Assembly: GCA_964344705.1 (NCBI GenBank)
Contig: CAYFOG010000002.1
Coordinates: forward strand, 25,502-89,501
From: Candidatus Woesearchaeota archaeon
GTDB lineage: Archaea > Nanobdellota > Nanobdellia > UBA10117 > ARS21
Direction: 5' to 3'
Length of the DNA stretch: 64,000 nt
Part shown: positions 4,081-5,507 of the stretch, one piece after another
Layout: each line of letters opens with the position of its first letter
How positions within the stretch are numbered: position 1 is the first letter of the stretch
Translations under genes and position numbers: made by a program
Notes under the pieces: generated by a model
What the model saw: only the letters and a program-made list of their open reading frames with translations
Databases searched by the model: none
What the model was told of the DNA's origin: nothing

Positions 4081-4515
4081 CTATTTCCTAAACTCTTTCA
4101 GAACGATTGTTGTATTTGTGTTTTCTACACTAGGCATAGTTCTTAGCTTTGTCATAATTAATGAATGTAATTCTTCAATGTCTTTTACACAAACTTTTGC
4201 GATGATATCATAGTCTCCTGTTATTTGGTAAACTTTGTCGACTGCTTCTACTTTTAGAAGCTCATTACAGATTTTATTTTGATCTGCAAGTCTTCCTGCG
4301 CGAATTGCTAATCGTGCTGAGATGTCCTTTCCAAGCTTTTTCCGATTTACAATTACTGTATATTTTGAGATAATTCCTTCTGATTCTAATTTCTTAATTC
4401 GGTTATGGACTGTCGTAATTGGAATATTCAATTCCCGAGAAATTTGCTGAGTTGTGTTTTTTGCGTTCCTTTTTAGAATGCTTAGAATGTCCATATCTTT
4501 GTCATCTAGCTTCAT
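4081..4515 (-). CDS. lrp: Lrp/AsnC-family transcriptional regulator
   Basis: 144 aa from ATG 4515. N-terminal HTH: DILSILKRNAKNTTQQISRELNIPITTVHNRIKKLESEGII. C-terminal RAM domain region: VKDIEELHSLIMTKLRTMPSV. Confidence 0.85.
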   Translation of the reverse strand: MKLDDKDMDILSILKRNAKNTTQQISRELNIPITTVHNRIKKLESEGIISKYTVIVNRKKLGKDISARLAIRAGRLADQNKICNELLKVEAVDKVYQITGDYDIIAKVCVKDIEELHSLIMTKLRTMPSVENTNTTIVLKEFRK

Positions 4516-4927
4516 AATGGAATAATATTTCAAAAACTTATAAGTCTTTTGAAATAATACAGTCCTTTTTTCCATTTTATTGTAAGTATTTTCTTATACT
4601 AGTTTTGCGTTATAGTCAGTGTGATAACTATGGAAAGACCAGGAATACATAGCTTGGACTGTACGGAATGTGCGCCCATACACACAACCGTAATAGTCTC
4701 AAGTAGAGATGACGAAGTTTACTGTAGAATGTGCGGTTTGGTTCTTGTTTAAATCAAACTAACTGACGTCGTACAACTGCCGGGAAGTGCGGGATTGCCA
4801 CCCGCACTCACATTTTTATAAATTTGAAAAGGATAGTGAGCGGCACCGAAGCGCCGCGTCTTCTCGCTAAAACAAGCCCGCGAGGTGTCACAGAGTAAAC
4901 TCCGTGGACCTCACGATTCGTCTCTGA

Positions 4928-5001
4928 CGAGCCCGCGAGGATTTGAACCCCGACCAACCGGGCCGAAACCGGTTACACTATCCAGATTATGCTACGGGCC
5001 C
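4928..5001 (-). tRNA. tRNA-Arg (provisional anticodon TCG); 3' end possibly at 4873 if the 11-nt repeated 3' segment marks an intron
   Basis: Minus strand GGGCCCG-TA-GCAT..GTGT-ACCGG-TTTCGGC-CCGGT-TGGTC-GGGG(T)-TTCAAAT-CCTCG-CGGGCTC-G. Anticodon stem ACCGG/CCGGT is perfect. T loop is TTCAAAT. Acceptor has one or two G-U pairs. D stem is weak. Confidence 0.55.
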
Positions 5002-5054
5002 GTTAATTATAGGTCTGAAGAGGCGTTTATAAAGTTTACCTACTTTATATTTTT

Positions 5055-5507
5055 ATGAATTCCAGAAAGTTTCTTTCTACACTTATTCTTGCACTCTCAA
5101 TTCTAGGAATCATATTTTCCATATTAACCATTTTCAATCATTATGCGGTTGAAGATAACGCTTTTTGTTTGACTGATAAAGGTACTTGTGATGTTGTGAA
5201 TAAGAGCGTTTACTCTACTTTTTCCGGTATTCCTTTGGGATTTTTCGGGATTTTTTACTTTGTTGCAACTATTTATCTCGCAGGAAATGTTTATTTTGGA
5301 AGGCATTATCGTGAAAGTGTTAGATATTTGTTTATTTGGACTGGAGTGGGATTAATTCCTGTAGCTTACTTAATTTATGTCGAGGCTTTTAAGTTACTTA
5401 CTTTCTGCAGTCTTTGTACAGCGATCCATTTGATTGTAGGATTTAATTTTACTTTGGCGTTCTTATTGAGTAAAAGAATAAAAAAATTAAAGGATAAAAA
5501 TAAGTAG
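5055..5507 (+). CDS. VKOR-family (vitamin K epoxide reductase-like) thiol-oxidoreductase membrane protein
   Basis: 150 aa, 4-5 TM helices. Loop Cys pair CLTDKGTCD and TM CxxC (CSLC) fit the VKOR/DsbB-like arrangement. Confidence 0.55.
   Translation: MNSRKFLSTLILALSILGIIFSILTIFNHYAVEDNAFCLTDKGTCDVVNKSVYSTFSGIPLGFFGIFYFVATIYLAGNVYFGRHYRESVRYLFIWTGVGLIPVAYLIYVEAFKLLTFCSLCTAIHLIVGFNFTLAFLLSKRIKKLKDKNK

Follow-up and report, generated by a model that had tools for sequence, protein, structure and literature searches.

A 55-bp insertion with a duplicated tRNA 3' end behind a tRNA-Arg(UCG) gene, and similar insertions at seven further tRNA genes, in a Woesearchaeota genome

The locus lies in a window of 64,000 nucleotides (the whole stretch of DNA that was analysed, contig C2, positions 25502-89501) from a Candidatus Woesearchaeota genome of 540 kb in 31 contigs (G000; 91% complete, 37.2% GC), in which intron-bearing archaeal tRNAs are present. 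A tRNA-Arg(UCG) gene is situated between the gene of an Lrp/AsnC regulator (4575..4081, minus strand) and that of a VKOR-family protein (5055-5507, plus strand), with tRNA-Asn and tRNA-Glu genes also near the locus. The GC content over positions 4700-5000 is 0.45-0.59 compared with ~0.30 in the flanks and 0.372 in the whole genome, confirming the GC-rich segment in an AT-rich genome that an earlier note on this DNA had described. Rather than one element, the segment is a composite of four unrelated features (Table 1).

The proposed tRNA-Arg cloverleaf at 5001..4928 on the minus strand was confirmed by Rfam and ARAGORN. Both found a canonical, intron-less tRNA of 74 nt ending at 4928. The acceptor 3' strand and the discriminator of this tRNA come from repeat copy 1, and the tRNA is 100% identical in three genomes of the same genus and in 9 of 10 metagenome contigs. 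The TATA-like box in front of the gene probably serves as its archaeal promoter, in which case the leader would be short or absent.

Downstream of the tRNA, the 11-nt direct repeat AGCCCGCGAGG was found at plus-strand positions 4930-4940 and 4875-4885 with a period of 55, as reported, and all other coordinates of the note hold as well. Read on the tRNA strand as CCTCGCGGGCT(C/T)GT, the repeat is longer, covering 14 nt with a single mismatch. The two copies enclose an insert of 41 nt which is single copy in the genome. This spacer folds, and does so with greater stability than in the pairing that had been proposed for it: the insert holds an inner hairpin CACGGAG-UUUA-CUCUGUG (4906..4889), around which its CGUGAGG (4915..4909) pairs with CCUCGCG of repeat copy 2. 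An inspection of the insert for terminal inverted repeats revealed GTCAGAG / CTCTGTGAC only, which is imperfect and of 7-9 nt. A tandem duplication was rejected, the insert being without similarity to the 41 nt preceding the repeat.

Table 1. Features of the tRNA-Arg(UCG) locus (window coordinates) and the eight tRNA genes with a repeated 3' end (contig coordinates).
Feature	Position	Strand	Remark
TATA-like box TTTATAAA	5026..5033	-	24 nt upstream of tRNA-Arg position 1; read from the sequence; kept in relatives
tRNA-Arg(UCG), complete, intron-less	4928..5001	-	Rfam RF00005, 54 bits, model positions 1-71; ARAGORN anticodon TCG
Repeat copy 1, CCTCGCGGGCTCGT	4927..4940	-	T-stem 3' strand, acceptor 3' strand, discriminator G, 1 nt of trailer
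Unique insert, CAGAGACGAATCGTGAGGTCCACGGAGTTTACTCTGTGACA	4886..4926	-	41 nt, missing from all relatives; alignment gap
Repeat copy 2, CCTCGCGGGCTTGT	4872..4885	-	one C-to-T difference; abuts ancestral trailer
Ancestral trailer block: TTTAGCGAGAAGAC, hairpin 1, UCACUAUCC, U-run	4827..4871	-	45 nt, nearly invariant in the genus
Hairpin 1, GCGGCGC-UUCG-GUGCCGC	4857..4840	-	conserved tRNA trailer hairpin
Hairpin 2 (stem 4787-4807), then CACATTTTTA	4786..4818	+	minus-strand reading GUGCGGG-UGGCAAU-CCCGCAC, 4807..4787
Micro-ORF, 40 aa, CxxC...CxxC zinc ribbon (MERPGIHSLDCTEC...VYCRMCGLVLV*)	4630..4752	+	ORF list; convergent with tRNA-Arg
tRNA-Arg-UCG			11-nt repeat, period 55
tRNA-Lys-CUU	G000:C2:7048-7172		12-nt repeat, period 48
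tRNA-Met-CAU	G000:C2:93521-93660		10-nt repeat, period 66
tRNA-Ala-GGC	G000:C2:95418-95549		11-nt repeat, period 55
tRNA-Val-UAC	G000:C7:6401-6558		19-nt repeat, period 81
tRNA-Leu-AAG	G000:C1:4526-4660		17-nt repeat with one mismatch, period 51
tRNA-Leu-UAG	G000:C4:27194-27330		7-nt repeat, period 53
tRNA-Ser-GCU	G000:C1:53738-53886		8-9-nt repeat, period 64

Both stable hairpins described downstream of the repeat are present with the sequences reported; they belong to different strands. In 10 distinct sequences, the helix of hairpin 1 is fully (100%) paired when read on the tRNA strand, and its one-sided changes (GC/GU, GU/AU and CG/UG) become A.C mismatches if read on the other strand. Within the trailer block, CACUAUCC occupies 4838..4831 inside UCACUAUCC and is followed by the U-run at 4830..4827. 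For hairpin 2, one pair that is A.C in the minus sense in 9 of 10 sequences is G.U in the plus sense, and the hairpin was therefore placed on the plus strand. There, positions 4786-4808 give a terminator-like match with the tail CACATTTTTA, and the loop in relatives is GAAA with a T-run after the hairpin. Judged by these features, hairpin 2 is the terminator-like 3' end of the convergent micro-ORF, its use in archaeal termination being putative. The micro-ORF stops at the same codon in two relatives (TAA/TGA; G001 and G002), its substitutions are biased to third positions, and weak Pfam matches to S27e and TFIIB zinc ribbons were obtained; it accounts for part of the raised GC. The suggestion that a separate structured non-coding RNA lies here is correct in part: hairpin 1 sits in a trailer block of 45 nt that is strongly conserved and read with the tRNA, and hairpin 2 marks the end of the micro-ORF on the opposite strand. 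Both hairpins are older than, and independent of, the 55-bp insertion described below.

A search with Rfam covariance models over 4400-4927, at E values up to 10, returned nothing besides the tRNA. RNase P RNA on the plus strand, as the motif GGAAAGACC at 4632-4640 might suggest, was rejected; the real one is located at C1:22492-22749 and the motif is the start of the micro-ORF. SRP RNA was likewise dismissed, with the true gene at C1:53009-53274. The idea that the Lrp/AsnC gene (4575..4081) possesses a long 5' UTR or a riboswitch was dropped as well, since a TATA box of its own stands ~25 nt before the ATG.

The trailer motif CACUAUCC in front of the U-run (4831-4838, minus strand) corresponds exactly to the reverse complement of GGAUAGUG, the D-arm of the same tRNA. 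This motif is kept after tRNA-Arg(UCG) in two genera (L005-L009): in G007-G009 it immediately follows the tRNA, and in G005, G010 and the genus of the window it comes after unrelated hairpins.

In a search of 40 relatives, the whole 4576-5054 region was matched only within the same genus, and the matches were ~60 nt shorter than the query. In G001, G002 and both contigs of G004, the sequence ...CGCGGGCTC runs straight into GTTTAAGCGAG, where the window has 55 additional bases, corresponding to one repeat period. Ten metagenome contigs were recovered via the neighbouring VKOR gene (73-85% protein identity), and the 55 nt are missing from all ten. Thus, 13 of 13 relatives (three same-genus genomes and ten metagenome contigs) have an empty site, with the sequence in single copy and the tRNA followed by the trailer GTTT(A/T)AGCGAG, which identifies the segment as a derived 55-bp insertion composed of 41 unique nt and a duplicated 14-nt target. 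One of the empty-site contigs (L033) represents a diverged lineage with a tRNA of 94.6% identity; repeated deletion is, therefore, the less parsimonious account. Built with repeat copy 1, the tRNA of the window equals that of the relatives. Of the three options put forward earlier, a tRNA 3'-end duplication left by an integration-type event is the one supported by these data, with 13 empty sites set against a window filled by copy, 41 nt and copy. A direct repeat of the tRNA 3' part flanking DNA that is missing from the empty site of relatives is the arrangement of att-type integration.

Archaeal non-canonical BHB tRNA introns occur at position 59/60 and at others, and intron transposition is known from Thermoproteales. 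An intron of this kind had been the first option of the earlier note; by this account, the splicing endonuclease would cut out the 55 nt at a relaxed 59/60 motif, with the T-stem (formed with copy 2) as the outer helix and UUCA/UGUG as the central helix. The geometry for the scan, with the central helix followed by the bulge, was validated on the genuine 59/60 intron of the tRNA-Arg(UCG) of G006, UUCA|AAA...UGAA|AAU-CCUCC (L013), and on the anticodon nucleotides of exon 1 being part of the central helix (PMC4090602). With this validated geometry, no full 3-4-3 BHB with 55-nt spacing was found at tRNA-Arg. The sole candidate was the relaxed 59/60-like motif, where the T-stem provides an outer helix of 5 bp, the central helix has 3 of its 4 pairs and an inner helix is missing, and its spliced product would have A60 and a G1.U72 pair. 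The same arrangement is seen at Leu-AAG, relaxed hBH/HBh' sites are known in archaea (PMC4090602), and 59/60 T-loop introns exist in relatives of the same order, including that of G006; the six other insertion sites of the genome described below are without such a motif. Removal of the insert is not needed, as the full 74-nt cloverleaf is formed with copy 1 and is identical to the tRNA of the relatives. The insert shares with BHB introns its shortness, its structure and its position in the T-arm/acceptor region of a tRNA gene, and introns of this type are frequent in the clade. It differs from them in that the tRNA it adjoins is complete without it, in the lack of a BHB and in the exon duplication on its flanks, which introns do not make. 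Since the unspliced gene already encodes the ancestral tRNA, we regard an intron as very improbable.

As to introns in other genomes of the order, the tRNA-Arg(UCG) of G006 (L013, G006:C4) carries a clean 59/60 T-loop BHB intron, and neighbouring tRNA-Glu genes in other families (L014, L015) carry several non-canonical introns.

Taken alone, the 11-nt repeat at tRNA-Arg is not beyond chance, as direct repeats of this kind (11 nt or longer, GC content of 0.4 or higher, spacing of 30-110 nt) number 30 in the genome. It was judged to be real because the alignment gap to the relatives equals exactly one 55-nt period and because such repeats are ~35-fold enriched at tRNA 3' ends. The enrichment was determined with ARAGORN on the whole genome, comparing the last 24 nt of each tRNA with the 120 nt downstream. 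Among 38 tRNAs, five had the 3' end repeated over 10 nt or more in these 120 nt and three more over 7-9 nt; in controls, a repeat of at least 10 nt occurred once in 114 comparisons. Each of the seven further sites is empty, with a single copy, in at least one genome of the same genus. The same scan on the two relatives scanned in full, G003 (33 tRNAs) and G005 (37 tRNAs), revealed no tRNA 3'-end duplication, implying that the insertion burst is specific to the genome of the window. Accordingly, about one-fifth of the tRNA genes in a 540-kb DPANN genome gained a short hairpin-forming insert together with a duplicated 3' end.

The inserts start 1-5 nt past the discriminator and are 34-62 nt long, with duplications of 7-19 nt. 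In sequence, the eight are mostly unrelated; those of Met, Ala and Ser share the hairpin core CTCG(C/T)TTT..AAA..CGAG, which is found nowhere else in the genome. Exact-pattern scans of viral, genome and metagenome collections with the Lys, Leu and Met/Ala inserts gave no source element, and the exact patterns tried for the Arg insert with its junctions had 0 matches in these collections. Templating from the own tRNA by snap-back or partial copying was rejected, since alignment scores with the cognate tRNA were no better than those with the other 37 tRNAs.

Staggered-cut or att-type integration yields a target duplication of this type. The Arg repeat marks a target that was duplicated when DNA was recently inserted behind the gene. 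We favour the reading, and consider it probable, that this insertion and the seven others were of the integration type and are scars at the tRNA 3' boundary, a classic hot spot. In the ancestor, as in the 13 relatives, tRNA-Arg(UCG) stood directly before the trailer GUUU(A/U)AGCGAG, the UUCG-capped hairpin, CACUAUCC and the U-run. In the lineage of the window, 41 bp of unrelated, hairpin-forming DNA then entered 1 nt past the discriminator, and the final 14 bp of the target, which comprise the T-stem 3' strand, the acceptor 3' strand, the discriminator and the following nucleotide, were copied to the far side of the insert. The agent may have been a mobile-element-type integration at the tRNA 3' boundary, either of a miniature or deleted element or by an integrase acting on short DNA. 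The present sequence would be a scar without a role in tRNA splicing and with little or no function beyond a longer trailer. The primary transcript is probably extended by 55 nt, comprising a stable hairpin and a pseudo 3' end, before the old U-run is reached, and RNase Z would probably still cleave after G73 of copy 1. For annotation, the gene should be given as a canonical 74-nt tRNA-Arg; by itself, the locus amounts to a small indel scar next to a normal tRNA gene.

Several findings speak against integration. Between the Arg repeats there are just 41 nt, holding no integrase gene, no cargo and no recognisable element ends, and no element was found at the locus. The eight inserts are mostly unlike each other, and their eight targets would need eight att specificities or a structure-directed enzyme. 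The duplication lengths vary between 7 and 19 nt, unlike those of a fixed-stagger transposase. With its 41 bp, the Arg insert is also far shorter than the integrative elements and MITEs that are known.

In archaea, mobile elements are well documented to integrate into tRNA genes at their 3' part and to leave duplicated fragments of the tRNA behind (PMC3293823, PMC9897764, PMC4090602), and attL/attR duplications at the tRNA 3' part have been described for SSV-, pNOB8- and pTN3-type integrases and for archaeal and bacterial tRNA genes (PMC9897764, PMC3293823). The locus resembles these in that foreign DNA lies between two identical copies of the tRNA 3' portion, the tRNA is restored by the proximal copy and the site is empty in relatives. 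It differs from them in that only 41 bp lie between the repeats without integrase or cargo, the repeat is short (11-14 bp) and eight different tRNAs were struck in one small genome with a single Xer-like recombinase (C1:36221-36703), which is its only tyrosine recombinase. Target-site duplications of MITEs and transposons are similar with regard to short, non-coding, hairpin-forming inserts, duplicated target flanks and a common core in three inserts; the inserts of 34-62 bp, however, are below known MITE sizes, their duplications differ in length, insertion is strictly confined to the tRNA 3' boundary, and an autonomous partner was not seen. Moreover, the Arg insert is single copy, terminal inverted repeats are absent in the other inserts, and the core is confined to Met, Ala and Ser. 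The sole rve transposase was found on contig C23 (1561 bp), which is likely bin contamination as its GC content of 59% is very unlike the 37% of the genome. A reverse transcriptase was searched for in the genome and none was detected.

Casposons make 14-15-bp duplications at tRNA 3' ends. Casposase or Cas1-Cas2 activity would agree with the tRNA 3'-end target, duplications in the 11-19-bp range and short inserts, and a complete type V-A CRISPR-Cas locus encoding Cas12a (1344 aa), Cas4, Cas1 and Cas2 is present on contig C10 (1-6834, L086). Its array has ten repeats of 36 nt, and the spacers, of 25-28 nt, have a higher GC content. In contrast to a casposon, of which none was found, Cas1 is here part of a CRISPR operon, and duplications of 7-19 nt with inserts of 34-62 nt depart from the 36-bp or 14-15-bp duplications and spacer-length inserts of these systems. 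With the spacers also lacking a match to the inserts, a CRISPR link was rejected.

The same variability of duplication and insert lengths, with most inserts outside a common sequence family, would be accounted for by DNA repair or replication, where breaks or stalled forks at highly transcribed tRNA 3' ends receive filler DNA and staggered ends are filled in, without an integrase. All events are positioned 1-5 nt past the discriminator, where RNA polymerase terminates, and no element-encoded enzyme was found in the genome, both of which fit such a by-product. If this origin applied, the burst would reflect a lineage-specific defect or enzyme. It is at odds with inserts that are not locally templated, their similarity to the own tRNA being no higher than to the other 37, with the specific hairpin core common to three inserts, and with the lack of events in two close relatives whose tRNA genes and terminators are the same. 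We consider a repair or replication by-product rather unlikely, yet with a real chance of being correct.

Inserts taken as RNA tend to complement the duplicated 3' end. Among 37 tRNA ends, the Arg (-14.8 kcal/mol) and Lys (-10.4 kcal/mol) inserts are the best duplex partners of their own 3' end, each ranking 1/37, and a rank-sum over the eight sites gave P ~0.01. This would suit a selected RNA element, in which the new trailer hairpin with its pseudo tRNA 3' end acts as a minihelix-like decoy, terminator or processing signal; on this view, function would explain why eight tRNAs have such a unit. The folding energy of the trailer (-31.6 kcal/mol) and the strong conservation of the older hairpin within it point in the same direction. 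The new unit, however, is present in no relative and so has no support from conservation or covariation, the Met and Ala inserts rank 25/37, and selection alone leaves exact duplications of 11-19 nt unexplained. Selection for an RNA function is accordingly judged improbable as the origin of the repeats.

Going beyond an integration-type scar at tRNA-Arg, the eight micro-insertions (34-62 bp with 7-19-bp duplications) might be footprints of an undescribed activity that reads the tRNA 3' boundary by structure rather than by sequence, a speculative idea to which we give a small chance. Its source might be ultra-small mobile elements of a new class that target tRNA genes, or else an integrase, Cas1/casposase-like or other, that inserts short DNA. 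If it exists, the genome would provide a natural snapshot of archaeal tRNA genes gaining segments, the raw material for disrupted or intron-bearing tRNA genes. Models of how non-canonical introns and split or fragmented tRNA genes arose build on the addition of DNA at tRNA genes (PMC3293823, PMC4090602), and the sites offer clean, dated pairs of empty and filled loci for the study of this process in archaea. They also show that tRNA 3'-end duplications can arise without a recognisable integrated element.

Further observations were made at the boundaries of tRNA genes. In the window's genome, the promoter and 5' acceptor strand of tRNA-Ala(GGC) (G000:C2:95474-95611) are replaced by tRNA-Met-like sequence (GGCGAGG vs GGGCGG in G003), and the contig ends 62 nt upstream. 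As 4 of 7 acceptor pairs are left and G3.U70 is missing, this gene is probably a chimeric pseudogene.

Whole genes come and go right behind tRNA-Leu-AAG and tRNA-Ser-GCU, as evident from the 3' flanks in G001-G004 (L070-L074). A HAD-type hydrolase is encoded behind tRNA-Ser in G001, G002 and G004, not in G003 or the window's genome, and a nucleoside-phosphorylase-like gene behind tRNA-Leu in G004 only; no tRNA-end repeats flank these gained or lost genes. Two contigs of G004, C20 (L022) and C46 (L025), have the tRNA-Arg 3' end and the trailer block in common and diverge right after the T-run of the trailer, which is a rearrangement or strain difference at the same boundary. Finally, 11 nt of the T-loop region of tRNA-Asn in G003, GGTTCGACCCC, recur 32 nt behind this tRNA (L087, G003:C11:175234-175340), a partial duplication of a different kind.
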